Shown here one piece after another: positions 17,451-63,407 of a stretch of 64,000 bases of DNA (the first letter of the stretch is position 1; each line of letters begins with the position of its first letter). Made by a program: the position numbers and the translations under genes. Source of the DNA: Candidatus Dojkabacteria bacterium (GTDB lineage: Bacteria > Patescibacteriota > Dojkabacteria > JAFGLO01); the NCBI GenBank assembly GCA_016927995.1, contig JAFGLO010000004.1:64955-128954 (forward strand). Reading direction: 5' to 3'. The notes beneath the pieces are model-generated. The model did not search any database. It was not told the DNA's origin and saw only the letters and a list, made by a program, of their open reading frames with translations.

Positions 17451-17544
17451 TGGAAAATTAATAGATGGGGCACATCATAGCTTTGTCGGGTATGAAGACC
17501 AAGTCGCTAAAAGTGTTAAGGATTTTGTAGCATCAGTGGGTTGA
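17446..17544 (+). pseudogene. 3' remnant of a second alpha/beta-hydrolase paralog
   Basis: It translates to VSGKLIDGAHHSFVGYEDQVAKSVKDFVASVG*, which closely matches the C-terminus GKLIEGATHGFGGYEDMAAKSVIEFVGSVDN* of the hydrolase at 14671-15558. It directly abuts the stop of the 509-aa ORF. Confidence 0.6.
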
Positions 17545-18090
17545 GTAATCTATTTGCTCGTGGCCGGTAATTGGTAAAGCTAACCCGGTAAGATTTGGAT
17601 TTTTACGTTTCTTTAGGTGCTTGTCTGTATATAGAGCCATGTTTTTGCCAACGTAATTTAGCTTTACTTCATGGACGGTATGTCCAAGCTTTTCCGCATA
17701 CTCGATTAGTGATTTTCTCCAGTTTATTCCGTTTGGCACCGTGCAAGTGTAAACCAATTATTAGATCGTAATTTTTTACATCTTCTGGTTCAAAGTTTCG
17801 GGTGATTCTATTAATGCAATCTCGCTCTTCCGGAAGAAGTTTCTTTCTTTTATGATTTAAGTCCCTAAATTTCCAGGGAAGTTCCTGCCAAAGCGGATCA
17901 ATTACAGTTGAGCCCAGCCGGCTTGGGTAAGAAAGTAGCTAAGAAGCCCTTTTCCGCTGCCCACATCGGCAGCTTTGCAAGGTTCATACATTTCAATTAA
18001 CCATTTGGCCCAAAGTTGAAACCTAAACTTTTTAGGGCGTCGAAGGCTAGTTGATTTCGTGGATTTGAGCTTCATCTTTCTCTGAGTCAT
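17533..18090 (-). pseudogene. Frameshifted class I SAM-dependent methyltransferase
   Basis: Motif I DVGSGKGLLSYF lies in one frame. A motif IV-like YDLIIGLHLHG and the C-terminal part lie in two other frames. Three ORF fragments cover the region. Confidence 0.4.
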
Positions 18091-18098
18091 ATATCAAA

Positions 18099-18116
18099 GT
18101 CAAGTCAACTTGACTA
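18099..18116. repeat. Perfect palindrome AGTCAAGTCAACTTGACT
   Basis: 7-bp inverted arms lie between the divergent pseudogene and the ORF at 18169. This is a possible operator or recombination site. Confidence 0.5.
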
Positions 18117-18130
18117 GATTTTACCAGAAA
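18113..18130. repeat. Direct repeat ACTAGATTTTACCAGAAA, left copy
   Basis: The same 18 to 19-mer (ACTAGAATTTTACCAGAAA) recurs at 19065-19083, immediately outside the partial tRNA copy. The pair brackets about 960 bp. Confidence 0.55.
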
Positions 18131-18168
18131 TAATTAGGGAATATCGTGATAAGCCGTATCCTGAAGTT

Positions 18169-18432
18169 TTGACAAGGCAAGAGATTGAATTAAAGTTAAG
18201 TCTTGTAAACAGATTGACGGACGGTCAAAGTGCTTTGCCGATTGAAAGATTGGCAAAGCGTAGACAAAAACAATATGAAAAGCAACTCGAAAAGTTTTCA
18301 AGCTATTCAGACGACCAAATATTGGAACAACATACTAAAACAGTTAACAAGGAAAGAGCTATGAGAGAGAAAATGGTAGCCAAAATCAAACGAACATGGG
18401 AAGCCGGTACGAGTGTGTCATTAGATGTCTAA
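18169..18432 (+). CDS. Hypothetical small basic/helical protein, 87 aa, TTG start
   Basis: ORF only; no motifs. It lies in the tRNA-Pro mosaic region. Confidence 0.3.
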   Translation: MTRQEIELKLSLVNRLTDGQSALPIERLAKRRQKQYEKQLEKFSSYSDDQILEQHTKTVNKERAMREKMVAKIKRTWEAGTSVSLDV

Positions 18433-18439
18433 ATAGATA

Positions 18440-18601
18440 AAACACTCAAATCGGGGCGATGCCCACTTCGGGGTATCCTCCCCGCTTTGGTATTTTGACT
18501 GCACTTTGTTTGTCAAAACACTCAAATCGGGGCGATGCCCGTAAAGGGTATCACCCCCGCTATCGCATTTTGTCTGCACTTTGTTTGTCAAAACACTCAA
18601 A
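18440..18601. repeat. About 76-bp tandem repeat, 2.2 copies, each carrying a decayed tRNA-Pro 3'-end copy (att-like)
   Basis: Units start at about 18440, 18516 and 18590. Each begins AAACACTCAAATCGGGGCGATGCCC. The third unit runs into the genuine tRNA 3' end (ATCGGGGCGACACG...). Confidence 0.7.
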
Positions 18602-18675
18602 TCGGGGCGACACGACTTGAACGTGCGACCTCATGACCCCCAGCCATGCGTTCTAGCCAACTGAACTACGCCCCG
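18602..18675 (-). tRNA. tRNA-Pro (anticodon GGG)
   Basis: Manual cloverleaf fold: acceptor CGGGGCG/CGCCCCG with A73; D stem GTTC/GAAC; anticodon stem CATGG/TCATG with loop CTGGGGG; T stem GCACG/CGTGT with loop TTCAAGT. No encoded CCA. Confidence 0.85.
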
Positions 18676-18925
18676 ATATTATACCCGCTTCAACATAAAA
18701 GCTATCCCTAGCTATTCTACTCTTCTTTATTTTTTGCTCCAAAGATCTAGCTCCTTTCAAATCTTTACATTTCTTAAAGTACACGAGCTTCCATTCTGTG
18801 CCATTTTTCGTATATTTTGATTTTCCTCTATTGTGCTCAGATAGTCTGCGCTTTATATCATCCGTTGATCCAACGTAAATCCTATTCTTTATGTCTTTAA
18901 TTATGTATATCCCAACTTTATTCAT
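18653..18925 (-). CDS. GIY-YIG nuclease superfamily small protein
   Basis: IYIIKDIKNRIYVGSTDDIKRRLSEHN contains the GIY...YVG motifs and conserved R/E/N. It is about 90 aa. Its 3' end overlaps the tRNA-Pro 5' region by about 23 nt. Confidence 0.75.
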   Translation of the reverse strand: MNKVGIYIIKDIKNRIYVGSTDDIKRRLSEHNRGKSKYTKNGTEWKLVYFKKCKDLKGARSLEQKIKKSRIARDSFYVEAGIISGRSSVG

Positions 18926-18941
18926 ATTTCACCTATTCTAT

Positions 18942-19062
18942 TCATGACCCTCTATCTGTCGATAGACAGGCCAGCCATGCGTTCTAGCAAATCTCCATTC
19001 TGATTCATCAGAATAAGGATCCTCGATTCCGAGTCACGGAATCGGGACTGAACTACGCCCCG
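18942..19062 (-). pseudogene. Partial duplicate of tRNA-Pro (positions 1 to about 43) interrupted by two insertions
   Basis: It matches the tRNA-Pro acceptor 5' strand and D arm through the anticodon stem. A roughly 57-nt insertion sits in the D loop. A 20-nt palindromic insertion (CTATC-GACA-GATAG) sits in the anticodon loop. The T arm and acceptor 3' strand are missing, and the GIY-YIG start codon lies 17 nt away. Confidence 0.6.
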
Positions 19063-19064
19063 AT

Positions 19065-19083
19065 ACTAGAATTTTACCAGAAA
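19065..19083. repeat. Direct repeat ACTAGAATTTTACCAGAAA, right copy
   Basis: See the left copy at 18113-18130. Confidence 0.55.
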
Positions 19084-19190
19084 AGCAGCACGAAGTGCAT
19101 AGGTTAATCAAATGAGCCAAGGGTTTGAATTTACAGCGCTAACGGTATTTATAGTATTGGCGGAGAGAAGCGGAAATAAGGCGGGTTTGC

Positions 19191-19499
19191 CTACTTTTCA
19201 GGTGTTGTTATTGGCTTTTGCTTCTTTTTAGATATTGAGCCAATTACATTGACAATAATTACACCCAAGATAGCACCCAAAACTGCTCCAATTATTAATG
19301 ATCCGATTGCCGTAAAAAGTATATAGACCCAGCTTTTCACCATCATTTCGACGCCGAATTTCATTTCGGAAATTTTTGGAGGAAGCCAATATGTGAGTGC
19401 CCAATGCATAGTGAGATAAGCACCGGGGATTCCCCCAAGTATAATTCCCAAAAGATTTTTGCCTATTGCAACAAAGAGCTTTTTAAGATCAGTCTTCAA
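19191..19499 (-). CDS. Hypothetical small membrane protein (102 aa, about 3 TM)
   Basis: Hydrophobic spans and a Lys-rich C-terminus. Confidence 0.5.
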   Translation of the reverse strand: MKTDLKKLFVAIGKNLLGIILGGIPGAYLTMHWALTYWLPPKISEMKFGVEMMVKSWVYILFTAIGSLIIGAVLGAILGVIIVNVIGSISKKKQKPITTPEK

Positions 19500-19633
19500 T
19501 ATTTTTTATGTAAAGTTATATATTAATATCTTAATCTAGAACTGAAATAAAGTACACACTCAATTTTATCTAATATGATAAAGGTTCTATTTGAGTGTAT
19601 AATGCTTACGTTATCTTATCTTATTATAAAAAT

Positions 19634-21103
19634 ATGAAAACCAGGAAATTTACAATACTTCATTCAAACGATATGCATGGGGACTTTTTGGCGGAAGCAA
19701 CTTCAGGTAAAGGAAAGCTAATTGGTGGGCTTGCACTTTTATCCGGTTACATAAACAAGGTTCGGAAAGAAGAAGAAAATGTTTTATATGTAATTTCAGG
19801 AGATATGGTTCAGGGATCTCTTATTGATTCTGAATATAAAGGTATTTCAACCATTGAAATTATGAATTATTTAGCTCCGGACGTGGTCTCTTTAGGAAAT
19901 CATGAATTTGATTATGGACTTCCCCATCTTTTATTTTTGGAAAAAATGGCAAATTTCCCGATAGTAAACGCAAATTTGTATATAAAGAAATATTACAAAC
20001 GGTTAATGCGACCTTACATAATTATTAAAAAAGCAGGATTTGATATTTTGTTTACGGGAATAATTACTGAAAAGGTAATGGATTCAATAAGTCAGGATAA
20101 ACTTGTTGGGAGTTTTATAACGCTTGAGGAAGCAAGTAGGGAAGTAGGTAGAATTACCGATGCATATAAGCGGGATGACATTGATTTAACTGTTCTGCTT
20201 ACGCATATTGGATTTGAATCTGATATTGCTTTGGCCAAGATGCTAAAGCCGGAATGGGGTGTGGATATGATAATAGGCGGGCACTCTCATACAATTTTGG
20301 ATCACCCCAAGAAAGTTAACAAAGTACTTATAGCGCAGGCCGGTGTTGGAACCGATCAAATAGGACGATTTGATATTGAGGTCGATGATGATACAAATAT
20401 AATTGTTAAATATAGATGGAAGTTAATACCGATAGATGAATCAATTGCTGAACCTGACCAAGAACTCGAGGCGTATATTAATTCATATAAACAGATTGTC
20501 GATCGAAAATTTAGCACGCTAATTTGCAAACTTTCCGAAAAATTGACTCATCCTCTTCGTGAAATAGAGACAACAGTGGGAAACCTTTTTGCAGATGCAT
20601 TCGCAGAATCCACTGAATGTGATGTTATGTTTGTAGGATCTGGATCAATAAGATCAAAAGAGTTAGGACCATTGGTAACTTTAGGCGATTTAAACTCGTG
20701 TTTTCCCTATGATGACAGCTTAACAAGGTTTGAAATAACCGGGAATACTCTCCGAAAAATATTTGCACATATTATGCGTGTAAAAAATCGTGATGGAGAA
20801 GGCGAATGTTATCAGGTAAGCGCAGGGGTTAGTGCCGTTTATGATGATAATGCAGATAAGCTTAAAAGCCTAACGTTTAAAGGAAAACCTGTAAAAGCTA
20901 CTGACAAATTCAGAATTTGCTTGCAAGGATACCATTTAAGTCAATCAAAGGCTTATTTTGGTGTTTCACAAAAGGAATTAGCAAAATTAGCGCCCCCTAA
21001 GATTGTTTCAAGCTCGGCCCAGAGTGTAATAGAAGAATTTTTAAGAAATAACCAAAATATTGACAAGAAGCTTGAAAACCGGCTGGTTTATTTAGGTTCT
21101 TAA
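19634..21103 (+). CDS. Metallophosphoesterase / 5'-nucleotidase family protein (UshA/YfkN-like)
   Basis: HSNDMHGD, GDMVQG, GNHEFD and GGHSH metallophosphatase motifs, plus a C-terminal 5'-nucleotidase substrate-binding-like domain. The MKTRKF start is preferred over the ORF maximum at 19595. Confidence 0.82.
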   Translation: MKTRKFTILHSNDMHGDFLAEATSGKGKLIGGLALLSGYINKVRKEEENVLYVISGDMVQGSLIDSEYKGISTIEIMNYLAPDVVSLGNHEFDYGLPHLLFLEKMANFPIVNANLYIKKYYKRLMRPYIIIKKAGFDILFTGIITEKVMDSISQDKLVGSFITLEEASREVGRITDAYKRDDIDLTVLLTHIGFESDIALAKMLKPEWGVDMIIGGHSHTILDHPKKVNKVLIAQAGVGTDQIGRFDIEVDDDTNIIVKYRWKLIPIDESIAEPDQELEAYINSYKQIVDRKFSTLICKLSEKLTHPLREIETTVGNLFADAFAESTECDVMFVGSGSIRSKELGPLVTLGDLNSCFPYDDSLTRFEITGNTLRKIFAHIMRVKNRDGEGECYQVSAGVSAVYDDNADKLKSLTFKGKPVKATDKFRICLQGYHLSQSKAYFGVSQKELAKLAPPKIVSSSAQSVIEEFLRNNQNIDKKLENRLVYLGS

Positions 21104-21128
21104 AGCCAATTATACTATTAAGTGTAAA

Positions 21129-21770
21129 CTAGGCTTTCTCGCCGCACTCAGGACAGAACTTAGCATTTGCGGACAGCTTTGCACCACATTTTTTACATTT
21201 GTTTTCAGGGACAAGACTTGTTCCGCATTCAACACAAAACTTTGAATGGGCTTTAACTGTTGCTCCGCACTTTGGACAAACAGCCTTTTTAACATCTTCC
21301 CAGTCTTTTTCGCCAAGGTGTTTGTCTTCTTTTGCCATTCTTGCGTGAGCAAATGCTTCGTCACGACCGTGTTGGGCCTGAGCGGCTGACATTTCCTCAC
21401 CAAGTTCGGGAGCACACTCTTTGCAAAGTCCACGTTCATGATTCCAGCAGATCTCTTTACAAACCCATGTGCCGCATCGTTTACACTGTATAAACATGGG
21501 TTGCATCTCTTTTACTGCCTCGTCAAGAGCTTTATCGTGTTGAGGACCAGCGGCCATTCTGTGAATATCGTCCGATGTTGAGGCTACTGTTGAAACGGCG
21601 CCACCAAGTAGGTTGCCTACAACATTTAAAGCCCCGCTAACAAATCCTGTTGTGGATTTTTTAAATGTGCTCATGTAGCCGTTGCCGCACTTTTCACAGA
21701 TGAATTTAAATTGATAACCCGATTCATTTGACATATCTTCGTAGTTGTTTGTAAATGGAATATTTGCCAA
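21129..21770 (-). CDS. Multi zinc-ribbon protein
   Basis: At least five CxxC pairs (CEKCG, CKRCG, CKEC, CPKCG...CVECG, CKKCG...CPECG) with A/Q/E-rich linkers. Confidence 0.6.
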   Translation of the reverse strand: MANIPFTNNYEDMSNESGYQFKFICEKCGNGYMSTFKKSTTGFVSGALNVVGNLLGGAVSTVASTSDDIHRMAAGPQHDKALDEAVKEMQPMFIQCKRCGTWVCKEICWNHERGLCKECAPELGEEMSAAQAQHGRDEAFAHARMAKEDKHLGEKDWEDVKKAVCPKCGATVKAHSKFCVECGTSLVPENKCKKCGAKLSANAKFCPECGEKA

Positions 21771-21854
21771 GATTATTTTTAATAAATTTAGTTTAGCTTT
21801 AGATGATAGCAGTTAACTGTTTACGTATCAATAGTTGTGAGTTAAAATTGTGAT

Positions 21855-22292
21855 ATGGCAAACCCTCTAGTATTTACTATGCCCACTTTTCCTCACATAC
21901 TCGAGCTTTCTAGCATGTTTCCCAGGGTGCTTAAGCTTGGTCCGAACTTAAAAACCGAGGTTGAATATCTAAAAAATCGAATAAAAAAGGAAAAGCCCGA
22001 AATAATAATAGGTTTTGCACTAGCCAAAGGAGATAAAAGTTATATAGAAAAAACGTGTTTTAATGAGATTCATAAAAAAAAGATTCTAAAGTCTGGGTCT
22101 GATTCTTTTGAGCTGTACGTGCCTGATAGGTTGCCACCCGAAATTATTCCAAGGGAAGATGCTTCCAGAACGTTTTGTAACTATGTATGTTACTTGCTTT
22201 CGGAATTTTTGCAGAGTGAAGGACTTAAACCCAAGTTAAGCTTTTATCATATGGGCACTACAAGATTCGAACTTGTGACCCCGCGAATGTGA
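21855..22292 (+). CDS. Hypothetical protein; weak resemblance to the C-terminal half of peptidase C15 (pyroglutamyl peptidase)
   Basis: SRTFCNYVCYLL resembles the C15 active-site segment GTFVCNHVMYGLL, but the N-terminal GF-PF region is absent. The last 40 nt overlap tRNA-Val on the opposite strand. Confidence 0.3.
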   Translation: MANPLVFTMPTFPHILELSSMFPRVLKLGPNLKTEVEYLKNRIKKEKPEIIIGFALAKGDKSYIEKTCFNEIHKKKILKSGSDSFELYVPDRLPPEIIPREDASRTFCNYVCYLLSEFLQSEGLKPKLSFYHMGTTRFELVTPRM

Positions 22293-22325
22293 ATCGCGTG
22301 CTCTAACCAGCTGAGCTAAGTGCCC
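22252..22325 (-). tRNA. tRNA-Val (anticodon CAC)
   Basis: Cloverleaf: acceptor GGGCACT/AGTGCCC with A73; D stem GCTC/GAGC; anticodon stem CGCGA/TCGCG with loop TTCACAT; T stem ACAAG/CTTGT with loop TTCGAAT. Confidence 0.9.
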
Positions 22326-22334
22326 TTGAAATGA

Positions 22335-23912
22335 CTATCTTACAGTTACTTCTACGAGTTTAAGTTCGTTAGTAGTTTCATTGATTTTTCCAACAACAAG
22401 ACTTCCCGAATCATTTAGTACTGTAAACTTACTTTCAATGTTTTCTAAAAGCTCATTCTTATTAATTCCCCAAAGATCACTATAAGATATTGTTCCATTC
22501 TTCCAAAAGAAAACTACACCCGAGTCGTCGCCCCACACAAAATTACAGGAAGTTTCTGTGCAATCAGCAATTTCATAACCGTTATAGGTGGTAAGATAGT
22601 CCCATTCATCGACTACAAGCCAGAAAACAAAATAGACGTTAGATATATTGATTATTGCTTTACTTGAGTCCGGCGATATTGAAACAAACTTACAATTAGA
22701 TTCATAACAATTTACAATCTCGTGTGCCGTAAGTTTTGAAGTGTCAAGAAACCAATACGTTGAGTCAACTTTTATAACAAACATTGTCCCTGTGAGGTCG
22801 GCATGAATTTCGGTTACTTCATCTGGGTTAAGAATAAAAGAACCATTGTCTTTTTCTTGCTCTGCAGGTAGTGGTTGATACATAAACTTGGTATTTATTG
22901 GAACAATAGTCTCGGTATTATTTCCCGAAAGTGCTTTACTTACGATTCCGTCTTTATTAACGAATACAATACTCCCATTTACAAATGTGTGTGGTATTGT
23001 TTCGATTTCGTCTCCGGATAAAATAATTAGGTTTACGGACTTTGCAAAATCGTGTGAAATAATCTCATCGTTACGAGTTAAAATAAGATATTCGCTGTTG
23101 GCGGCCCAATCCGAAATATTTGCACCTGTTGGAATGTTAGTTACTTCTATATACGAATTCAATGTATTGGTCGTGAACGCAACAATAGTTTTACTGTCAA
23201 TTGTGACGGTTGATTCTAGATTTTTTGTGTCTTTCGTTAGGGCACTTTTTATATCGAACTGTAAGAGAACTTTTGATAAGTCTGGAGCAGGAATAAGCTT
23301 CAGATTTTCAAGGTCGACTGCATAATCTCCATTGGTTAGGCTGACTTCTTTGCTGTTAAATACTTCGTTGCAGCTGGTTGTTGACCAAAAAACGAAGCTA
23401 ATATTGCAACGTTGGATCGTAAAGTGGTCGGCAAATTCGGTATAAGCTAAAACCGTATTTTTTTCTTCGTCGGAAAAGTAATGACGTGTTGAGCGTGAAA
23501 GCAAAGTCTCCGACTCGATATAACTTTTAGTTCGAAACAACTTTGAGTAAACCGAGTACGATAAGCCTTCCTTAACTCTTACGGGGAATGAATAAGAATG
23601 GTAGTTTTCTTTTTTAACTTCAATGGTATAGTCGCCAACTTCCAGTCCTGTGAGGATTTTTGAAGAAGAGGTTCCTAGCGATTTACCGTTAAGCAGGAGT
23701 TCGGCACCACGAACATTGCTTTTAATTGTAATTGATCCGGTTTGGATGATTGTGTTGTTTACAAATCGATATCCCTTTGAGTAAAGGATAACTATCACGG
23801 TAAAAAAAATAAAAGAGACCGGAATTAGGATTGCCCCGATCCAAGAGAACACTCGTTCTAAAGTCTTCTTTAGTGAACGCTTTGGTCTTGTCATGATAAC
23901 ATATTTTATCAC
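22335..23912 (-). CDS. Membrane-anchored protein with a PEGA-like beta domain
   Basis: N-terminal TM region. The segment IKSNVRGAELLLNGKSLGTS...GDYTIEVKKENYHSYSFPV fits the PEGA pattern. The rest is a beta-rich ectodomain. Confidence 0.5.
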   Translation of the reverse strand: MIKYVIMTRPKRSLKKTLERVFSWIGAILIPVSFIFFTVIVILYSKGYRFVNNTIIQTGSITIKSNVRGAELLLNGKSLGTSSSKILTGLEVGDYTIEVKKENYHSYSFPVRVKEGLSYSVYSKLFRTKSYIESETLLSRSTRHYFSDEEKNTVLAYTEFADHFTIQRCNISFVFWSTTSCNEVFNSKEVSLTNGDYAVDLENLKLIPAPDLSKVLLQFDIKSALTKDTKNLESTVTIDSKTIVAFTTNTLNSYIEVTNIPTGANISDWAANSEYLILTRNDEIISHDFAKSVNLIILSGDEIETIPHTFVNGSIVFVNKDGIVSKALSGNNTETIVPINTKFMYQPLPAEQEKDNGSFILNPDEVTEIHADLTGTMFVIKVDSTYWFLDTSKLTAHEIVNCYESNCKFVSISPDSSKAIINISNVYFVFWLVVDEWDYLTTYNGYEIADCTETSCNFVWGDDSGVVFFWKNGTISYSDLWGINKNELLENIESKFTVLNDSGSLVVGKINETTNELKLVEVTVR

Positions 23913-23976
23913 AGACAGCTTGTATATGCATCTTAGTTAATATACAATAAATCGACTATAAGATGATGGTTTTTTA

Positions 23977-24981
23977 ATGGCTAAACGGATTGGAATTGAC
24001 CTTGGAACCGCAAACTCCGTTGTATATGTGTCCGATAAAGGAATAATTTTGTGTGAACCTACGGTTGTTGCTTTAACAAAAGACGACTTAATGGTTATTG
24101 CCGTTGGGCAGGAAGCCAAAGAGATGCTTGGGAAAACACCTGATTCCATAATCGCTCGAAGACCCTTAAGAAATGGAGTAATTGCTAATGCTCGAATAAC
24201 CGAAGCAATTCTTAAGTATTTTATTGGAAAAGTAATGGGACCAATAAGACTGTTTAAGCCCGAAGTTATGATTTCGGTACCTGTGGGAATAACTTCCGTT
24301 GAAAAACGCGCGGTTGTAAAGGCGGCAATTAGTGCCGGAGCCAAAAATGTTGAACTTATACCGGAACCGCTTGCAGCGGCCATAGGTGCCAAACTTCCAA
24401 TTCATACATCAACCGGAAACTTAATCGTAAATATAGGTGGTGGAACTTCTGAAATCGCTGTGATTTCTCTCAATGGAATTGTAGCATTTAACTCTGCACG
24501 TGTTGCAGGTGATGCACTAAATGATGGAATTGCAGTGTATGTTAGAAAGAAACATGGATTAGTGATAGGTGAGCAAATGTCGGAACGAATAAAAATTGAA
24601 ATAGGAAGTGCACTGCCTATGGAAAAACCCCTTGAAATGGAGATTAGAGGTCGTGATAACTCGACAGGTATGCCAAGATCAACAACAATTGATTCAAATC
24701 AAACGGTCGATGCCATGAAACCTCGACTTAATCAGATAATTTTGGCTGTAAAGTCGGTACTTGAACGTACTCCTCCTGAGCTTACATCCGATATTATTGA
24801 TCGCGGGCTTATTTTAAGTGGTGGTACTGCCATGCTTCGAAATATAGATATGCTTTTTACTAAAGCACTTGGTGTGCCTAGTCATATTGCCGATGATCCT
24901 ATTTATTGTGTGGCCCGTGGTATCGGTGAAGCCCTTAAACATATTGATATTTTAAGAAAAAGCATTGAAGCAAACATGTAG
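23977..24981 (+). CDS. mreB: Rod shape-determining actin homologue MreB
   Basis: IGIDLGTANS phosphate-1, the NIGGGTS adenosine motif and LSGGTAMLR phosphate-2 motif. It is 334 aa. Confidence 0.95.
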   Translation: MAKRIGIDLGTANSVVYVSDKGIILCEPTVVALTKDDLMVIAVGQEAKEMLGKTPDSIIARRPLRNGVIANARITEAILKYFIGKVMGPIRLFKPEVMISVPVGITSVEKRAVVKAAISAGAKNVELIPEPLAAAIGAKLPIHTSTGNLIVNIGGGTSEIAVISLNGIVAFNSARVAGDALNDGIAVYVRKKHGLVIGEQMSERIKIEIGSALPMEKPLEMEIRGRDNSTGMPRSTTIDSNQTVDAMKPRLNQIILAVKSVLERTPPELTSDIIDRGLILSGGTAMLRNIDMLFTKALGVPSHIADDPIYCVARGIGEALKHIDILRKSIEANM

Positions 24982-25014
24982 GGATATGTTTGTAATCTGT
25001 CCCTACAAATGTGT

Positions 25015-25908
25015 TTAAGCATCAGTCGTTGCCCAATCCAAAAGCTTTTTCATTTCGGACTTTGATCCCTCGGGTGTTTTTAATGCGGGACTTTCCAGAA
25101 TCATTGGGATTTCTCTTAATTTCGGATGGTTTATTATTGCTTTTATGCCTTCTTTTCCTATTAACCCTTCGCCTAAATCGGCGTGTCGATCTTTGTTTGA
25201 CCCACACTCTGTAAGAGAGTCGTTTAAGTGAATGCAGGTAACATTTGAAAGCCCCAGTGTTGAGTCTATATCTTTAATAACCCCTTCGAGGTTATTTTTC
25301 CAATCATAACCCGAGGCAAATGAATGCTGAGTATCAACAACAAATCCAATCCGGTCCGGCTGTGCAGCTTTGCGCCTCATTTCAGAAATCTCGGTAAATT
25401 TATCGCCAAGGATGTTTCCCGAACCTGCAGAATCTTCCAATAAAAGTTTGCCTTTAGGAGCATTATCTAAAATCCAATCGAGTCCATAAATAACACGACC
25501 CATTGATGCCTTTTCGGAAAGATCCTGCACTGATCCGGGGTGAAAACAAATTCCCAAGACTTCGATGTCTGAATCAAGCCTGTATAAATAATCAGAAAGG
25601 GACGCAGCAAAATTTAAGTAGGCTACAAGGGACATTTTGCTTAGGTGGAACATTTGTTTGTCGCCACGGGCGAGGTTGATAAGGTAGATCCCATGAGCAA
25701 CAATCCTTTTTATTGAACTTTTTGCCAGGGCTTCGGCAAAGGCTTTTATTTGAGATTCATCAATAGGTTTTGTCGTCCAGCGTTGAGGAGCCGTGGGGTG
25801 TATTTGGATGCTGTTTGCCGAAATTGCCTCTGCATTTTTTACGGCGTTTATTAGACCTCCGGCGACTGATACATGTGATCCAAGGTAGCGCATTATGGTC
25901 TTTGTCAA
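25015..25908 (-). CDS. nfo: Endonuclease IV (AP endonuclease family 2)
   Basis: The start MRYLGSHVSVAGGL, the HGIYLINLA segment and the HLNDS metal-binding motifs. It is 297 aa. Confidence 0.88.
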   Translation of the reverse strand: MTKTIMRYLGSHVSVAGGLINAVKNAEAISANSIQIHPTAPQRWTTKPIDESQIKAFAEALAKSSIKRIVAHGIYLINLARGDKQMFHLSKMSLVAYLNFAASLSDYLYRLDSDIEVLGICFHPGSVQDLSEKASMGRVIYGLDWILDNAPKGKLLLEDSAGSGNILGDKFTEISEMRRKAAQPDRIGFVVDTQHSFASGYDWKNNLEGVIKDIDSTLGLSNVTCIHLNDSLTECGSNKDRHADLGEGLIGKEGIKAIINHPKLREIPMILESPALKTPEGSKSEMKKLLDWATTDA

Positions 25909-26082
25909 ATTTATTTACCATTATAGCGTGAAAGTATTCATGGGTCTATATCTGAAGTAACGAAAATACTGATAAACCCGGCGGTTGGGCCTCTTAACTT
26001 GGCATGATGTCAGATTATATTAAAGTTTTATTAAGAAATTTGGCTGGTTTGAGTGATATTATTGAACTGATATAAGTTAAGG

Positions 26083-29000
26083 TTGTGGAATATGATTAAA
26101 AGGTTTGTGGTTGGAATTTTGGGGTTTGTTATATTTACTCTGCTATTTATATCATCGGTTTACGCAGATCAAGTAATACTTCCTGTTTACCAGGATACTT
26201 ATGTTGAAGAAGGATATCCAAATGCGATTGTCTGGGATAATAGAAACTTATTTCTTGGGTATGACAGTATCTGGGGAAAAGAGCGCACAAGAATATACAT
26301 TCAATTTGATTTCTCTTTAATTCCTCCGATTCTTTATTCTGATACCGGAAGGTTACAAAGTGTTCAAATTCAGTTGTATCAATATCAAAGACAGGCTTTA
26401 GGCTCATATAATTTTTATTTATTTCAACTTTTGTTACCATTCCTGCAAGGGGAGGTTAATTGGTATACCCAGCCAATAGTGGGAGAGTTAATAGGCGAGT
26501 TCTCCTTTTCTGAAAGCCTGGCATATCAAAGTATTGATATAACCAACTGGATAATAGGTTTTTTGCAAGGCGGAGAAAATAATGGCTTTGCACTGGTTGC
26601 GGTGGATGAGTATAGCGCAGGCTCTATATTCTGGTCGGATTCATGCGAGGTTGCCGGTGAATGTGCCAAGCCAAGACTCGTTATCAACTATGATTCAAAT
26701 ATGCCTCCCCTTGCAGGAATGGTAACTTCTCATGATGTTTATTCTATAACCGGTGAGAATCAGACTCTTTTAACTTGGGATACGTCAACGGATCCTGAGG
26801 GAGATTCCATTACATATTCTGTATTACAGTCTGCCGGTAGTGATTTTTCTAGTGAACTTGTTCAATATTCGGGGCTTTCGGAGAATAATATATCGCTGAA
26901 TCTAAATAGTGGATCTAACTTTGTTAAAGTATTGTATTGTGATCCTTATCGGTGTACCGAAACTAATCCCATAGAAATTGTTCTTGATGATTTGAGTCCC
27001 GGCATTCCAATTGCAAATCCTTTACCACCTTACGTAAGTGGTAAAAGCATTGAAGTATCGTGGCAGCAAAGCATTGATAATTATAGTAACAATGTTTCTT
27101 ATCAAGTTTGTTATGGTTATACTTCCGACTTGGAAGATTGTCAGACAACTGATTGGACAGGTAATCTTTCCTTTGTAATTAATGATATTGAGATTGATGG
27201 TGAAATGTATTTTTGGGTAAGAGCGCAGGATGATTTTGAAAATATTTCAGATTGGTCGAATCGTGGCTCAACTGTAGTCGATAACAATTCTCCCGTGTTG
27301 GGAAAACTTACAATTCTAAACAGTGTTATTTCACCAAGTAATCCAACGAGCACAGGCGTTCTTGATGAGCAAGTTTTTGAAGGAGATGTTTTTGATGTAA
27401 CATTACAAGAATGGAGACTGTTTGTGATGGATCAGTTTCATAATGTGGTTTTTAGTGTGGAAGGGGTCGGAACTTCGATTGAGTACATGTATCAACCGGT
27501 ACTTCCTGATGGAACTTACTTCGCTTTTTTAGAGGCAACTGATTTAATTGGGAATACAGCTCGAAGCAATATAGTGTCATTTAGGATTGATGATACAAGT
27601 CCCATAATTTCTAAAATTAACATTGACAATGCCAAAATCCGTACAGTTGCCTCCGAATATCTTACATTTTCAGTGAGTGAGGAATCAACCTGTCTGGTAA
27701 CCTTAAACAGTGTTACAGTAGGTCAAGCCGGTTTATTAAATTACGCTCACGGAGGGAATAAACTACTATTACACTGCATTGATACTGCAGGGAATTCAGT
27801 AAAGCAACAACTTACAATTAACGTTGATCTTATTCCTCCTGAGGCTCCTCTTATCCAAGTGATATCCGCTTCTTTGGCAGATATTCGATTGGAAGTGACG
27901 GCTGAAATCGGCTCGACAGTCTCTGTTTTTGTAAGTGGAGTAAAACTGACAACTGTGTTTATGGATGTAAACGTGAAGAAATTTTCGTTTGCAAAAATAT
28001 TTTACCCAAGCCTTGATTACGAGGTTCGTGGATTTACCGTTGATTTGGCAGGCAATCAGAGTCCGTGGAGTGAAAAAAGAATGTTTAAGATTCCTTCATT
28101 ACGTGAACTTGGTATTGGTGGAGGTGAGTTTATCTTACCTCAAAAGGAATATTCACCTACCGGAGAATGTACAATAACTTTTTCACAGAGTAATAACTCT
28201 TACAACGTTGATTGTAATTTATCTGCACCTTATATTAGAAGTGTTAGTAGGGTAAACTCCGGGGCGGTATCGGGTGGAGTACTTGAAGTTTCCGGTAAAC
28301 ATATCCCAACCGTCAATGTAAACATAATTTACAAAAGATGTAAGAAAAAAAGTTTTTTAAATCCCGAAACCTGGTTTAGTTGTATTGAGGAGACATATTT
28401 TACGGAGACACTTAAAGTTGAGGATAGTTCAAGCAATAGTTGGATTTATGGACAGTTAACCTCCCAACCTGTCAACGGGTTTATAACTTCCGAAAAGCCG
28501 AACACTGAGGAGTTTACACTTAAGTATAGGGTAGAGGACCTTAATGCCAAAAGGTTGTATCGGATTAAGCAGCATCTTTTTCTTACTTCATATACAAGTT
28601 TGGGAGATTATTTTGGAAGCTTTGAATTTAGTCGGCCTTCGACCTGGTTTTTAATTCCCCCCGAAGTTAGTATGTCAGGAAGTAAGTATTTTTCGTTCAT
28701 GTTTTCCAGACTTATAAACGTAACACAATGGCATGGTTATACTGCGTTTCAGGCACCTCATAAGGGTATCGACTTTGGTAGTGTGCTTGAGCCGATTCTC
28801 GCACCTGCCGACGGCACTGTTGAAGTAATTGCCTGGGACAGTTATGGCGGTGAATGTAACTCCGGCGGAAAGATTTTACTTATAAAACATGATAATGGGA
28901 TGTATTCTGCATATTTTCATCTTGAAAATTATCTTAAATCTGATGGAACGGTACTTGTTGTCGGCGAACGGGTAAGTAGAGGACAGGTGATTGCAACTTC

Positions 29001-33454: not shown

Positions 33455-33700
33455 CTTATAATCCATTATACAGTGAAATAGTGAAGCAGTGAAACAGTAA
33501 AGTAATACTCTGGAAGCCCGATATGTGAGCAGAGATTCGCCTTAACAAGAAAGCAAAAGAGATAAAGGGTTCACTTCGAACATAGGAATCGACGGAAGCT
33601 TAAGCAGTGAAGTAGTGAAACAGTGAAGTATTCCTCTCCGGAAGATACCTATGAGAGAAGTGCCAGGCTTTGACAACAGATTAAATAAAAAATATACTAT
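33455..33700. repeat. Modular intergenic repeat element (8-bp periodic CAGTGAAG arrays plus a conserved core)
   Basis: It contains cagtgaaa-tagtgaag-cagtgaaa-cagtaaag, the core GGTTCACTTCGAACATAGGAATCGACGGAAGCTTAAGCAGTGAAG, and CTCCGGAAGATACCTATGAGAGAAGTG. Related modules occur at 45630-45730, 46440-46795, 53930-54090 and 54781-54860. Confidence 0.8.
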
Positions 33701-46439: not shown

Positions 46440-46795
46440 GCTATAGTCTCTTGCTTGCTAGTCTATTCACTATTTCACTGCTTAAGTTTCCCTCGATTCC
46501 TATGTTCATCGGAAGCCATTTGCTTATTTTGCCTTTTTGCTAAAGCGATTTCTTCTTCTCACACTAGCTTTTCGGTGATTACTTGACTGTTTTACTACTT
46601 CACTACTTCACTGTTTCACTACGTTACTGCTTCACTGCTTAAGCTTCCGTTGATTCCTATGTTCGAAGTGAACCCTTTATCTGTTTTGCCTTTGTGTTAA
46701 AGCTTGCCACTTCTCTCATAGGTATCTTCCGGAGTGTATTACTTCACTGTTTCACTACTTTACTGTTTAAGGTATACTAAAGTAAGACTTAGTTT
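46440..46795. repeat. Largest cluster of the modular intergenic repeat family (two back-to-back modules)
   Basis: On the opposite strand it reads GGTTCACTTCGAACATAGGAATCAACGGAAGCTTAAGCAGTGAAG and CTCCGGAAGATACCTATGAGAGAAGTGGCAAGC. These are flanked by 8-bp periodic arrays (cttcacta-cttcactg-tttcacta-cgttactg-cttcactg). Confidence 0.8.
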
Positions 46796-51946: not shown

Positions 51947-51950
51947 CGAT

Positions 51951-52017
51951 ATTTATCGATACTTACCGATATTTACCGGTATTTACCGGTATTTATCGAT
52001 ACTTACCGATACTTACA
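51951..52017. repeat. Tandem array of about 6.7 x 10-bp palindromic repeats upstream of the ECF sigma gene
   Basis: ATTTATCGAT ACTTACCGAT ATTTACCGGT ATTTACCGGT ATTTATCGAT ACTTACCGAT ACTTACAGTG. Each unit holds an ACCGGT or ATCGAT palindrome. The array ends 3 nt before the TATAAT (52021-52026) of the GTG-start sigma gene. Confidence 0.75.
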
Positions 52018-63180: not shown

Positions 63181-63336
63181 GGTTGGATTTGCTTAGCCTA
63201 TGGTGTAAAATAATAGAGCTATTATTGTTCTTGCGGGATCGTCTTCCCGATGGACAGAAACGTCCATACGGGATTAAACGCTAGTAGTATTTTGGAGGAG
63301 TTCAAAATGCTATCCGACGATTCCCATTGTTGTCAC

Positions 63337-63407
63337 TGCGGGATCGTCTAATGGTAGGACGGACGACTCTGAATCGTCTAATCGTGGTTCGAATCCACGT
63401 CCCGCAA
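63337..63407 (+). tRNA. tRNA-Gln (anticodon CUG)
   Basis: Cloverleaf: acceptor TGCGGGA/TCCCGCA with A73; D stem GTCT/GGAC; anticodon stem GACGA/TCGTC with loop CTCTGAA; T stem CGTGG/CCACG with loop TTCGAAT. Confidence 0.85.

Follow-up and report, generated by a model that had tools for sequence, protein, structure and literature searches.

A GIY-YIG nuclease gene in a probably split and rebuilt tRNA-Pro gene, and a 20-nucleotide palindrome shared by two bacterial phyla

The tRNA-Pro(GGG) locus described here lies on the minus strand of the window, the whole 64,000-nt stretch of Candidatus Dojkabacteria DNA that was analyzed. A small GIY-YIG nuclease gene separates a displaced 5' fragment of the tRNA gene from an intact copy. 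On balance, we favor the view that this block belongs to a recurring type of selfish cassette, in which a UPF0213/Slx1-like GIY-YIG gene lives inside tRNA genes. The cassette layout is found in at least 12 other loci, at Pro, Gly, Arg, Glu, Phe, and Leu tRNAs, in Patescibacteria and Bacteroidota. Judging from the sequences compared, recurrence of this design and of the same 20 bases in distant phyla suggests a mobile-element family that has not been described. A first-pass annotation of the window had proposed a mosaic left by a mobile element at a tRNA gene, with the GIY-YIG gene at its center, and the occurrence of the same architecture at other tRNAs, in other neighborhoods, and in other phyla agrees with this proposal.

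Layout of the tRNA-Pro locus

Read on the minus strand, the block consists of the tRNA-Pro 5' fragment, a short linker, the nuclease ORF, the intact tRNA-Pro(GGG), and a set of 75-nt repeats (Table 1). The fragment ends at nt 44 and lacks nt 45-76. It carries the two inserts that the first-pass annotation had described, 57 nt in the D-loop (X) and 20 nt in the anticodon loop (M), and it folds better than shuffled sequence (z = -3.4). One tRNA-Pro had been taken to be functional and the other to be a partial copy, and the covariance-model search agrees: the functional gene is called, and neither ARAGORN nor the Rfam tRNA model (E <= 10) calls a second tRNA at the locus.

Table 1. Features of the tRNA-Pro block and of a second locus in the window
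Feature	Position	Strand	Remarks
Direct-repeat copy 1, TTTCTGGTAAAATTCTAGT	19065..19083	-	Directly 5' of the tRNA fragment
Displaced tRNA-Pro fragment, nt 1-16, CGGGGCGTAGTTCAGT	19062..19047	-	Identical to intact tRNA
Insert X, 57-nt double hairpin, in fragment D-loop	19046..18990	-	Two perfect 8-bp stems
Fragment nt 17-35, TGCTAGAACGCATGGCTGG	18989..18971	-	One D-loop G missing in comparison with intact tRNA
Element M, 20 nt, CCTGTCTATCGACAGATAGA	18970..18951	-	Between anticodon-loop nt 35 and 36
Fragment nt 36-44, GGGTCATGA	18950..18942	-	Completes anticodon stem around M
Linker, 16 nt	18941..18926	-	Shine-Dalgarno sequence AGGTGA
GIY-YIG ORF, 90 aa	18925..18653	-	UPF0213 / bacterial Slx1-like stand-alone type
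Intact tRNA-Pro(GGG)	18675..18602	-	ARAGORN; Rfam tRNA model RF00005, 58.1 bits
Tandem repeat, 2.3 copies	18439..18610	-	Unit 75-76 nt, 88% matches
87-aa ORF, candidate gene	18169..18432	+	Opposite strand; no family match
Direct-repeat copy 2, TTTCTGGTAAAATCTAGT	18113..18130	-	Overlaps inverted repeat
Inverted repeat, 8+2+8	18115..18098		
Second locus of same style, at tRNA-Gln	63232..63351	+	

The nuclease ORF starts 16 nt past the fragment, and its last 23 nt are nt 1-23 of the intact tRNA. Its TAG stop codon lies in the tRNA D-loop, and eight of its 90 amino acids are encoded by tRNA sequence. Both the closeness of the gene to the fragment and its overlap with the intact tRNA had been noted in the first-pass annotation. 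An intron-containing tRNA does not account for the fragment, in which nt 45-76 are missing. A group I or archaeal-type (bulge-helix-bulge) tRNA intron was considered and rejected, as there is no Rfam intron match at E <= 10, and bulge-helix-bulge geometry, read from the sequence, is absent at the junctions of M.

X has no further copy in the window or in the 93 fetched loci, and its stem CGATTCC..GGAATCG is found again in a 60-nt D-loop insert at a tRNA-Glu (L033). PADLOC gave weak partial matches only in a search for defense-system membership.

Downstream of the intact tRNA, the tandem copies reproduce the tRNA 3' end, as had been reported; their period is 75. Each copy ends in TCGCCCCGAT, which is the 3' end of the tRNA and is present three times. 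A unit runs from the tRNA 3' end TCGCCCCGA through a 44-nt spacer to a mini-helix, a hairpin between CGGGG and CCCCG. These units resemble repeated "3' fragment plus flank" units at two related loci (L029 and L043).

Two features at the edges of the block are present in a weaker form than first described. Two copies of an 18-bp direct repeat do bracket the block, but the repeat is exact over 13 nt only (18118-18130 and 19071-19083), and 18 of 19 nt match if a 1-nt indel is allowed. It occurs in two copies only, by chance only moderately unlikely, and has no counterpart in related loci. Neither this repeat nor the 44-nt spacer has additional copies in the window or the 93 loci, and the flanking repeat may be unrelated to the element. 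Similarly, the 18-bp palindrome is present as an inverted repeat but is not perfect, because its TG center is non-palindromic. The cassette model leaves the 75-nt repeats, the 87-aa ORF, and the 18-bp direct repeat without explanation.

The nuclease and its recurrence at tRNA genes

The ORF product matches Pfam PF01541 over residues 4-69 with 60.3 bits (cut-off 22.6); its score with TIGR01453 is 26.5 bits, below the cut-off of 56. A family-profile search against the PDB finds 1zg2 at 7.7e-10, 1ywl at 1e-7, and I-TevI at 8e-4. The AF2 model (pLDDT 85.7) has the elements E5-10, E16-21, H24-32, E46-52, and H56-68, which make up a beta-beta-alpha-beta-alpha fold. With this model, Foldseek ranks 1zg2 and 1ywl first and second, and every match is a GIY-YIG domain. 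Among 50 relatives, Y17, G19, R27, H31, E63, and K67 are invariant, Y7 is conserved in more than 90%, and the conserved columns after E63 include no Asn. The nuclease looks active, judging from these conserved catalytic residues.

The structures 1zg2 and 1ywl have been placed among bacterial Slx1-like minimal domains, which are without an auxiliary domain or a conserved C-terminal Asn (PMC1564403). The window protein is like them in its best sequence and fold match, its size, its EHNxGK..KYT motif, and the lack of a C-terminal Asn. It has no residue beyond the catalytic domain, and a DNA-binding module is absent. The first-pass annotation had left it to a profile search to separate a homing from a housekeeping type. 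This search puts the protein with the stand-alone nucleases of UPF0213/YhbQ (bacterial Slx1-like) type and not with the multi-domain homing endonucleases.

The family has a median length of 88 aa and comprises about 8,100 clusters at 50% identity (E <= 1e-10). Its members are annotated as predicted repair nucleases, and we found no report of a location in split tRNA genes or of mobile behavior. Although of UPF0213 type, the nuclease family shows, judging from where its genes lie, genomic behavior like that of a selfish element. In 33 of 268 family proteins, the terminal extensions contain peptides encoded by tRNA arms or plugs, about four times the control rate. Among viral contigs, relatives of the nuclease are found in one locus only.

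The loci with the cassette layout differ in tRNA and in plug. At a Pro-TGG gene (L001), M lies at 35/36, and at a Gly-TCC gene in Saccharibacteria (L027), M lies reversed at 35/36 and the ORF has its stop codon in the D-loop. Another locus (L002) has an intact Pro-TGG and the ORF, with anticodon arms on the flanks that bear M at the position it occupies in the window. An Arg-ACG locus (L045) has a plug called M5 in the D-loop and comprises two tandem units. In Bacteroidales, Phe-GAA loci (L081-L087) carry a 34-nt plug in the T-loop. L040, L041, L043, L029, L003, and L033 are further loci of the same architecture. The loop nearest the junction is plugged in every fragment-bearing locus, whereas of four non-junction D-loops in 5' fragments only two are filled. 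In one case (L028), the family nuclease gene is accompanied by neither a fragment nor a plug.

Relative to the tRNA, the ORF is upstream at some loci and downstream at others, and the genomic neighbors differ among cassette loci. Nuclease clades match tRNA identity, with identities of 47-57% within the Pro clade, 59-62% for Phe, and 57% for Glu. Copy number also varies: the Bacteroidales homologue P0056 is found in one, two, or three tandem units at one site, in strains with flanks that are 99.5-99.9% identical. A zero-copy allele of this site was not retrieved among the near-identical strains. For the window locus, a search through the flanking 5'-nucleotidase did not find an empty allele; the identical protein belongs to the same locus in another assembly (L090). 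The nearest relative of the flanking gene (77% identity) has other neighbors and no synteny. Relatives do not share a conserved, syntenic locus with two tRNA copies. Because no empty allele was found, mobility at the window locus is deduced from recurrence and is not seen directly.

The following history would account for the fragment and the intact gene. The tRNA-Pro(GGG) gene would have been opened in the anticodon loop between nt 35 and 36 by a cassette with a copy of tRNA nt 1-35 of its own, to which the nuclease ORF is joined at its 3' end. That copy would re-create an intact, functional tRNA directly downstream. The host 5' half would be left upstream, where nine cassette-borne nucleotides (nt 36-44) would close its anticodon stem. 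M would then be a hairpin plug in that anticodon loop, and X a hairpin element in the fragment D-loop.

Perhaps the nuclease, which is related to the structure-specific Slx1, makes nicks or cuts in tRNA genes where hairpin or cruciform loops are exposed, and repair copies the cassette from a filled allele in a homing-like gene conversion. The plug may break up the second target copy that arises from the duplication, and it may also shorten direct repeats through which the cassette might otherwise be deleted. M possibly lands alone in hairpin loops as well. As the presumed target is present again, intact, in the rebuilt tRNA, "immunity by disruption" alone is incomplete as an account of the plug.

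Element M and the origin of the hairpin inserts

About 15 genomes contain M without a single letter changed, at 34 distinct sites in total. Exact copies occur in 25 genome stretches in 596 Gb, in which about one would be expected by chance, and in six metagenome stretches. Thus the 20-nt palindromic insertion seen by the first-pass annotation is present, but it is not a chance feature of this locus. It exactly matches an element that is dispersed across phyla and is limited to Patescibacteria and Bacteroidota. No variants with one to four mismatches were found in 249 kb, and no degenerate copies within four edits. Partial matches of 9-10 nt are few and consistent with chance. M might have been the footprint of a larger transposon, but half-sites of at least 11 nt are absent outside full copies. 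M resembles a family of 16-34-nt palindromes, CCTGYCTG...CAGRCAGG. Neither the M nor the M5 sequence was found in a paper in the searched literature, and a search of the same literature found no description of a tRNA-splitting nuclease arrangement.

Hairpin loops are the preferred location of M. In total, 71% of its sites are in strict hairpin loops, compared with 19.5% of random control positions (p = 1.5e-9), and eight of the 34 sites are within 450 nt of a tRNA gene (about 4% expected). M is present in both orientations, and also alone in many non-genic hairpins. Paralogous repeats with and without M differ by a precise 20-nt indel; for example, at L026 position 4379 is empty and 6242 is filled, with identical 12-nt flanks, and L024 is similar. 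For the related palindrome M5, a preference for hairpin loops was examined and rejected, because 42% of copies are in such loops, compared with 44% of random positions in the same GC-rich viral contigs.

These properties also suit an alternative that we consider unlikely, although it survives better than any other rival. In this alternative, the cassette has no relation to the hairpins, and M, X, and the CCTGYCTG...CAGRCAGG palindromes are independent miniature elements that some other host or phage function moves. They would enter single-stranded hairpin loops and survive best in dead tRNA fragments, where insertion is costless. No family nuclease is found within 400 nt of M at 29 of the 34 sites. 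M is absent from viral contigs, and 41 of the 42 M5 copies in viral contigs are without a family nuclease. Moreover, M is 100% conserved beside nucleases that are only 32-57% identical to each other, and plug type tracks nuclease clade only in part. In one Dojkabacteria MAG, seven REP-like hairpins are filled by M and two are empty, irrespective of any ORF. M sites in hairpin loops have no target-site duplication, and a few other sites have variable ones of 7-30 nt; the presence of variable duplications of 7-14 nt at some copies is also in line with independent movement. The mostly nuclease-free sites and the constancy of M fit an independent element better than a component of the cassette.

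Against independence stands the plugging of junction-proximal loops, which is invariable in fragment-bearing cassettes, whereas other loops of the same fragments are filled only half the time. In addition, the sole copy of M in the window, with 0 expected by chance, adjoins the nuclease gene. The GIY-YIG family (5/13; 5/34 sites) recurs near M across genomes, no other protein family does so, and neither a transposase-like candidate nor a RAYT partner was seen near M. As the nuclease gene is the only gene to recur there, it is more likely the driver than, as the first-pass annotation had supposed, the cargo.

The selfish-cassette reading can be extended to make the nuclease and the mini-palindromes one system. 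The nuclease would recognize hairpin or cruciform loops, among them those of the D, anticodon, and T arms of tRNA genes when extruded as DNA, and would write or move into them a fixed palindrome of 16-34 nt. This palindrome would be the border and immunity plug of a cassette of ~0.4 kb that splits an essential tRNA gene and provides the part to replace it. We regard this extension as rather doubtful.

Other explanations and related systems

An improbable explanation is that the gene is a vertically inherited, resident repair nuclease that is co-transcribed with the tRNA. Its tRNA-like leader with the extended hairpin would act in cis as a regulatory RNA, either on mRNA stability or by sequestering the ribosome-binding site. 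The hairpin does end 8-17 nt ahead of the start codon, abutting the Shine-Dalgarno sequence, and homing-endonuclease genes of phage T4 are controlled by ribosome-binding-site hairpins (PMC2988022). M also contains a -35-like TCGACA, and a -10-like TAGAAT lies 16 nt downstream; this promoter-like pair is weak, and is the sole -35/-10-like match in the window. A promoter function for M was rejected, because an equally good match was not seen, by eye, at L001 or L027. A resident regulatory RNA would also have to account for a design that occurs at six tRNA species among unrelated neighbors, for an ORF that is upstream or downstream of the tRNA depending on the locus, for tandem copy numbers that differ among near-identical strains, and for the occurrence of M in both orientations and in non-genic hairpins.

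Less probable still is a classical integrative element, in which a site-specific recombinase inserted and excised DNA at the tRNA gene and left the 75-nt units and the 18-bp repeat as att-like sequences. The threefold tRNA 3' end and the bracketing 18/19-nt repeat could be read in this way. Also, a serine recombinase abuts tRNA-Pro at L001, and a tyrosine integrase abuts the 3' end of tRNA-Phe at L085. However, no integrase or recombinase is encoded within about 5 kb or by the ORFs between 12.6 and 23.9 kb of the window, and att-type insertion and excision, which the first-pass annotation had proposed, is therefore unlikely. The main duplication is of the tRNA 5' half, which integrases do not normally make, related cassettes lack such a flanking repeat, and the bracketed 960 bp hold no island-like cargo.

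Finally, it is scarcely credible that the locus is an artifact of chimeric joining between tRNA repeats or of a technical oligonucleotide: a Logan contig does break inside the tRNA at the duplicated segment, and such repeats trouble assemblers, but that independent assembly (L090) has 100% identity over 18646-26103 and agrees base by base over the fragment, X, and M, and the design is present in more than 12 unrelated data sets made with different assemblers. A technical origin of M itself was rejected on its restriction to two phyla and to hairpin loops in many independent assemblies. To our knowledge, no adapter sequence matches M.

The closest analogues of the cassette system are mitochondrial. 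In Allomyces, a mobile GIY-YIG ORF in atp6 brings a replacement piece of the host gene, and double-hairpin elements (DHEs) are present. In Neurospora mitochondria, GC-rich palindromes flank tRNA genes. Yeast mitochondrial GC clusters are described in PMC4478555, which also refers to Neurospora. Like the fungal mitochondrial GIY-YIG ORFs, the window ORF is fused to or abuts a host gene and is accompanied by a duplicate of the displaced segment, and the function of the gene survives. Like the mitochondrial palindromes, those discussed here are dispersed, are polymorphic for presence and absence, merge and nest, and are concentrated around tRNA genes and mobile-ORF borders. In contrast, the mitochondrial examples are in organelles and in protein-coding host genes, and their palindromes are 18-79 nt in length and of other sequence. 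The cassettes are in free-living or episymbiotic bacteria of two phyla, target the loops of tRNA genes, and share an exact 20-mer across phyla.

T4-like phages offer a parallel in their free-standing GIY-YIG homing endonucleases, above all SegB, which is encoded in the T4 tRNA gene cluster (PMC2988022, Table 1). In both systems, a GIY-YIG gene that is not part of an intron is situated among tRNA genes, with hairpins near the ribosome-binding site. Seg genes spread when the endonuclease cuts an allele that lacks the gene, which is then copied in by repair, and the window cassette may home in a comparable way. However, Seg proteins have DNA-binding modules and are of the homing-endonuclease/UvrC lineage, whereas the window protein is a bare 90-aa Slx1-like/UPF0213 domain. 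Also, SegB lies between tRNA genes and, unlike the cassette, neither splits nor rebuilds one and has no plugged fragment.

Genomic islands and prophages that target tRNA genes likewise carry a copy of part of the tRNA that restores the gene, and leave a partial duplicate. Such islands and prophages are kilobases in length, depend on tyrosine or serine recombinases, and duplicate the tRNA 3' end, whereas the cassette is about 0.4 kb, is without a recombinase, and duplicates the 5' half (or a piece of the T-arm). REP/MITE and Rickettsia palindromic elements are short dispersed palindromes that are sometimes located in frame within genes or in RNA genes. M differs from them in being only 20 nt, letter-perfect at 34/34 sites, and cross-phylum, and in its preference for hairpin loops, and no RAYT or transposase partner was seen with it.

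Stand-alone GIY-YIG proteins of the UPF0213/YhbQ type have had solved structures since 2005, but we know of no established function for them. The present set of loci suggests that selfish elements in tRNA genes make up at least one large branch of UPF0213, and that their hosts would be kept alive by the rebuilding of the split gene. This idea is directly testable because Bacteroidales homologues are present in culturable hosts. M would rank among the smallest mobile DNA elements reported, and would be a bacterial counterpart of the mitochondrial GC clusters, for which we know of no mechanism after 40 years. If the nuclease and the palindromes are one system, this would be nuclease-driven, structure-targeted DNA mobility without a transposase, recombinase, or intron, and the large UPF0213 family would gain a biological role. 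In practice, the cassettes cause assemblies to break at tRNA genes, give rise to pseudo-tRNA fragments, and lead to surplus ORF calls. Possibly they also mark gene flow between ultra-small bacteria and co-resident bacteria.

The tRNA-Val in the window has no such 5' copy. The tRNA-Gln (63337-63407), for which the first-pass annotation had reported a duplicated 5' end, does have one: a second copy of its nt 1-13 lies 105 nt upstream (63232-63244), with a hairpin after it (63245-63273). A GGAGGA sequence and an ATG at 63307 precede the tRNA, and the resulting 14-codon ORF enters tRNA-Gln and stops at a TAA in the D-loop. This locus is perhaps a relic of a cassette that has lost its nuclease ORF.

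Anatomy of the tRNA-Pro locus and its nuclease

The tRNA-Pro block consists of a displaced, truncated tRNA-Pro copy, a GIY-YIG ORF, and an intact tRNA-Pro whose first 23 nt encode the last residues and stop codon of the ORF. Because a separate Logan assembly is identical to the window over this stretch, the layout proposed in the first-pass annotation is correct apart from two details. The reported 18-bp palindrome is an inverted repeat of 8+2+8 rather than a perfect palindrome, and the flanking 18-bp direct repeat is present with 13 nt exact, reaching 18/19 nt only with an indel. Each 75-nt repeat ends in a mini-helix, a hairpin between CGGGG and CCCCG, and an 87-aa ORF lies on the strand opposite to the nuclease block. 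Elsewhere in the data, no counterparts were found for the 75-nt repeats, the 87-aa ORF, or the direct repeat.

Features of the tRNA-Pro block and of the tRNA-Gln locus (window positions)
Feature	Position	Strand	Details
Direct-repeat copy	19083..19065	-	
tRNA-Pro fragment, nt 1-16	19062..19047	-	
57-nt insert	19046..18990	-	two perfect 8-bp hairpins
tRNA-Pro fragment, nt 17-35	18989..18971	-	
M, 20-nt insert	18970..18951	-	CCTGTCTATCGACAGATAGA; exactly between anticodon-loop nt 35 and 36
tRNA-Pro fragment, nt 36-44	18950..18942	-	
16-nt linker	between nt 36-44 piece and GIY-YIG ORF	-	carries Shine-Dalgarno sequence
GIY-YIG ORF	18925..18653	-	90 aa
Intact tRNA-Pro(GGG)	18675..18602	-	
75-nt unit	18610..18439	-	2.3 copies
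tRNA-Gln locus	63232-63407		copy of nt 1-13, 29-nt hairpin TCCCGATGGACAGAAACGTCCATACGGGA, GGAGGA, ATG of 14-codon ORF

The window belongs to a genome of Candidatus Dojkabacteria (Patescibacteria). The ORF product is identical to an NCBI protein listed under this organism name and matches Pfam GIY-YIG at 60.3 bits. The profile search suggested earlier places it in the UPF0213/YhbQ type; it is not a multi-domain homing endonuclease. A five-sequence family profile retrieves the UPF0213 structures 1zg2 (7.7e-10) and 1ywl (1e-7), then I-TevI (8e-4), and the same two structures again head the matches to an AlphaFold model (pLDDT 85.7). Proteins of this type have been described as the minimal stand-alone form of the GIY-YIG domain, without the C-terminal Asn (Dunin-Horkawicz et al., PMC1564403). 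Judged by sequence, the nuclease looks active, since Y17, G19, R27, H31, E63, and K67 are invariant in 50 relatives. The family comprises 8,121 representatives (50% identity, E <= 1e-10). Terminal extensions of 33 of 268 family proteins contain peptides resembling translated tRNA arms or plugs (the palindromic inserts that fill tRNA-fragment loops), about 4x the control rate, which is a rough measure. For the members P0241, P0243, and P0244, gene calling gives products of 166-214 aa in which the GIY-YIG domain occurs twice. The P0241 linker resembles a translated tRNA T-arm (RFES), and all three are probably read-through ORFs of tandem cassettes.

A promoter-like pair (18935-18962, minus strand) lies just upstream of the nuclease ORF: TCGACA within M and TAGAAT 16 nt downstream match a sigma-70-type promoter at 10/12 positions. 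Directly beyond the block is a broken gene (17533-18090, minus strand), two ORF pieces separated by stop codons, with weak SAM-methyltransferase-like matches (TehB, AdoMet_MTase; E about 0.05). The intact tRNA-Pro is absent from a whole-window Rfam scan at the gathering threshold, which lists tRNA-Val and tRNA-Gln, and scores 58.1 bits when 1.4 kb is scanned alone. This miss is probably a filter effect, and it shows that this gene can escape default scans.

Recurrence at other tRNA genes

The nearest relative, P0002 (57% identity), is located at a tRNA-Pro(TGG) in an unrelated gene neighborhood. Its layout is that of the tRNA-Pro block, with an identical M at 35/36 and no D-loop insert. Comparable arrangements occur at other tRNA genes, and those from L045 onward in the table were retrieved by nuclease homology rather than by way of M.

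Other nuclease and palindrome loci (asterisk, fetched independently of M)
Locus	Source or nuclease	tRNA	Arrangement
L027	Saccharibacteria	Gly-TCC	5' fragment carrying M in reverse at 35/36, then 8 nt, ORF, intact tRNA; stop codon in its D-loop
L002	Dojkabacteria	Pro-TGG	intact tRNA and ORF between two M-bearing anticodon arms; another M in a D-loop
L003	Lishizhenia	Phe-like	3' fragment right after ORF, M in its T-loop
L045*	P0085	Arg-ACG	two tandem units; D-loop plug M5, CCTGCCTGCCGGCAGGCAGG
L040*	viral contig	unidentified	M5 in a D-loop
L041*	P0028	3' fragment	T-loop plug CCTGTCTGTCGACAGTCAGACAGG, 17/20 positions as in M
L043*	P0086	Leu-CAA	26-nt plug at nt 53/54
L029*	P0009	3' fragments	three fragments, each with a 30-nt T-loop plug
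L033*, L042*	Microgenomates, unassigned contig	Glu-TTC	double-hairpin inserts of ~60 nt; a stem in common with the 57-nt insert of the window
L081-L087*	Bacteroidales (P0056)	Phe-GAA	34-nt T-loop plug

Every ORF lies between two part-copies of one tRNA, one intact and one truncated. The truncated copy reaches just far enough to close a stem whose loop holds the hairpin insert. This insert adjoins the junction, and other loops of the same fragments are sometimes filled (2/4 D-loops). All loci match one of two patterns. With N as the loop position, the first reads host nt 1-N, plug, nt N+1 to the end of the stem, linker, ORF, nt 1-N, host nt N+1-76; the second mirrors this order and places the ORF 3' of the intact tRNA. 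Among fetched nuclease loci, only L028 lacks any tRNA fragment. Nuclease clades track tRNA identity (Pro, 47-57%; Phe, 59-62%; Glu, 57%), and their gene neighbors differ. The P0056 unit is present in one, two, or three copies at one site in strains with 99.5-99.9% identical flanks. The tandem arrays at L045, L043, and L081 are what would be expected if one unit had inserted repeatedly.

In the Bacteroidales locus L084 (969-1000), a copy of nt 1-14 lies upstream of tRNA-Phe, separated from it by 11 nt, and this tRNA also has a cassette on its 3' side. A large serine recombinase adjoins the 3' end of tRNA-Pro(TGG) in L001 (5309-6793), and a tyrosine integrase adjoins a 12-nt tRNA-Phe 3' end in L085 (1-929). 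Ordinary integrative elements therefore also use the tRNA genes of nuclease cassettes.

The 20-mer M and related palindromes

In 596 Gb of sequence, with each species represented by a single genome, exact M occurs in 25 stretches, where ~1 match would be expected by chance. These stretches come from about 12 MAGs, which belong to Dojkabacteria, Saccharibacteria, further Patescibacteria, and Bacteroidota (Lishizhenia, Saprospiraceae, and Acetofilamentum). JGI metagenomes add six stretches, and an exact search of viral contigs gave no match. M is letter-perfect at all 34 distinct sites, and no variants within four edits, or half-sites, occur in 249 kb of surrounding sequence. Its flanks, the 5' one often ending in TTG, form a short hairpin loop at 71% of sites, versus 19.5% for positions drawn at random from these loci (p = 1.5e-9). 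A tRNA gene lies less than 450 nt from 8 of 34 sites (~4% expected). One Dojkabacteria MAG has a REP-like hairpin of which seven copies contain M and two do not, the flanks being identical, which shows precise 20-nt insertion without target duplication; duplications of 7-30 nt accompany a few other sites.

M resembles a wider set of palindromes of 16-34 nt with arms CCTGYCTG/CAGRCAGG. M5, a perfect palindrome, has 42 exact copies in viral contigs. There, compared with controls, it is not preferentially found in hairpins, and only one copy adjoins the nuclease.

Across genomes, no protein family other than the GIY-YIG nuclease recurs near M. A less likely alternative is that the palindromes are passengers independent of the cassette. 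In its favor, M is far more conserved than the accompanying nucleases and mostly occurs without one.

Further arrangements accompany these palindromes. The Dojkabacteria MAG NJ_NJASGE3bin.36 carries at least 14 copies of M on nine contigs and, in L026 (5800-6450), a dense field of nested hairpin repeats. Among them, CCTGCCTGCCTGCGCAGGCAGG is enclosed by stems of ATTCCTGC...GCAGGAAT, and there are REP-like hairpins of ATTCTGGCTTG/CCAGAAT, some containing M. In Saccharibacteria (L013, 6880-7045), about 2.5 tandem copies of the first 21 nt of tRNA-His plus a 7-8-nt linker lie upstream of tRNA-His, with M at nt 7/8 of the middle copy and no ORF; the array looks like a miniature gene-less cassette. 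In a viral contig (L070, 2239-2330), ARAGORN predicts a 92-nt tRNA-Met with the 20-bp M5 in the position of a long variable arm, where a working tRNA may tolerate a plug.

Proposed mechanism, parallels, and other repeats in the window

The best-supported explanation is a selfish cassette, about 0.4 kb long, which enters tRNA genes at their loops, supplies the missing tRNA part, and leaves behind a plugged fragment. The nuclease would nick or cut tRNA-gene DNA at exposed loops, and repair would copy the cassette in, by analogy with T4 SegB-like endonucleases and with Slx1, whose cutting is structure-specific. T4 SegB is a free-standing GIY-YIG endonuclease among tRNA genes (PMC2988022). The plug may block re-cutting of the second target copy, lower deletion between direct repeats, or itself be the enzyme's substrate. 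Four points weigh against a selfish cassette: the empty allele that was looked for was not found, the rebuilt tRNA is still an intact target, the enzyme lacks a DNA-binding module, and M, besides being much better conserved than its nucleases, is usually found without one. It is rather unlikely that the nuclease and the palindrome together make up one system with a new mechanism.

With no integrase near the block, an origin by recombinase is unlikely. An artefact is very unlikely, given the agreement of the Logan assembly and the recurrence of M in independent assemblies, and an intron was excluded by Rfam scan.

Neither M, M5, nor the cassette arrangement was found in the literature searched. 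The nearest parallels are mitochondrial. GIY-YIG ORFs in Allomyces mitochondria bring a replacement gene end, and these ORFs and the double-hairpin elements there parallel the cassette. In Neurospora mitochondria, tRNA genes are flanked by GC-rich palindromes. The palindromic GC clusters of yeast mitochondria, which parallel the palindromes described here, are regarded as small mobile elements capable of merging and nesting (PMC4478555), and that source cites the Neurospora palindromes. Patescibacteria were predicted in one study to donate GIY-YIG genes to other bacteria (PMC12455944), which fits the cross-phylum sharing observed here.

At the tRNA-Gln locus, the copy of nt 1-13 is 105 nt upstream of the tRNA, and the 14-codon ORF, which has a ribosome-binding site, runs into the tRNA and stops at a TAA in its D-loop. 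This is the tRNA-Pro layout minus the nuclease gene, and it resembles what a relic of such an element would look like. The window also contains 8-nt ACAGTGAA-type tandem repeats at 33470-33628 (reverse complement at 46580-46640), seven tandem copies of CGATATTTAC at 51947-52016, and three 30-nt units at 2348-2435.
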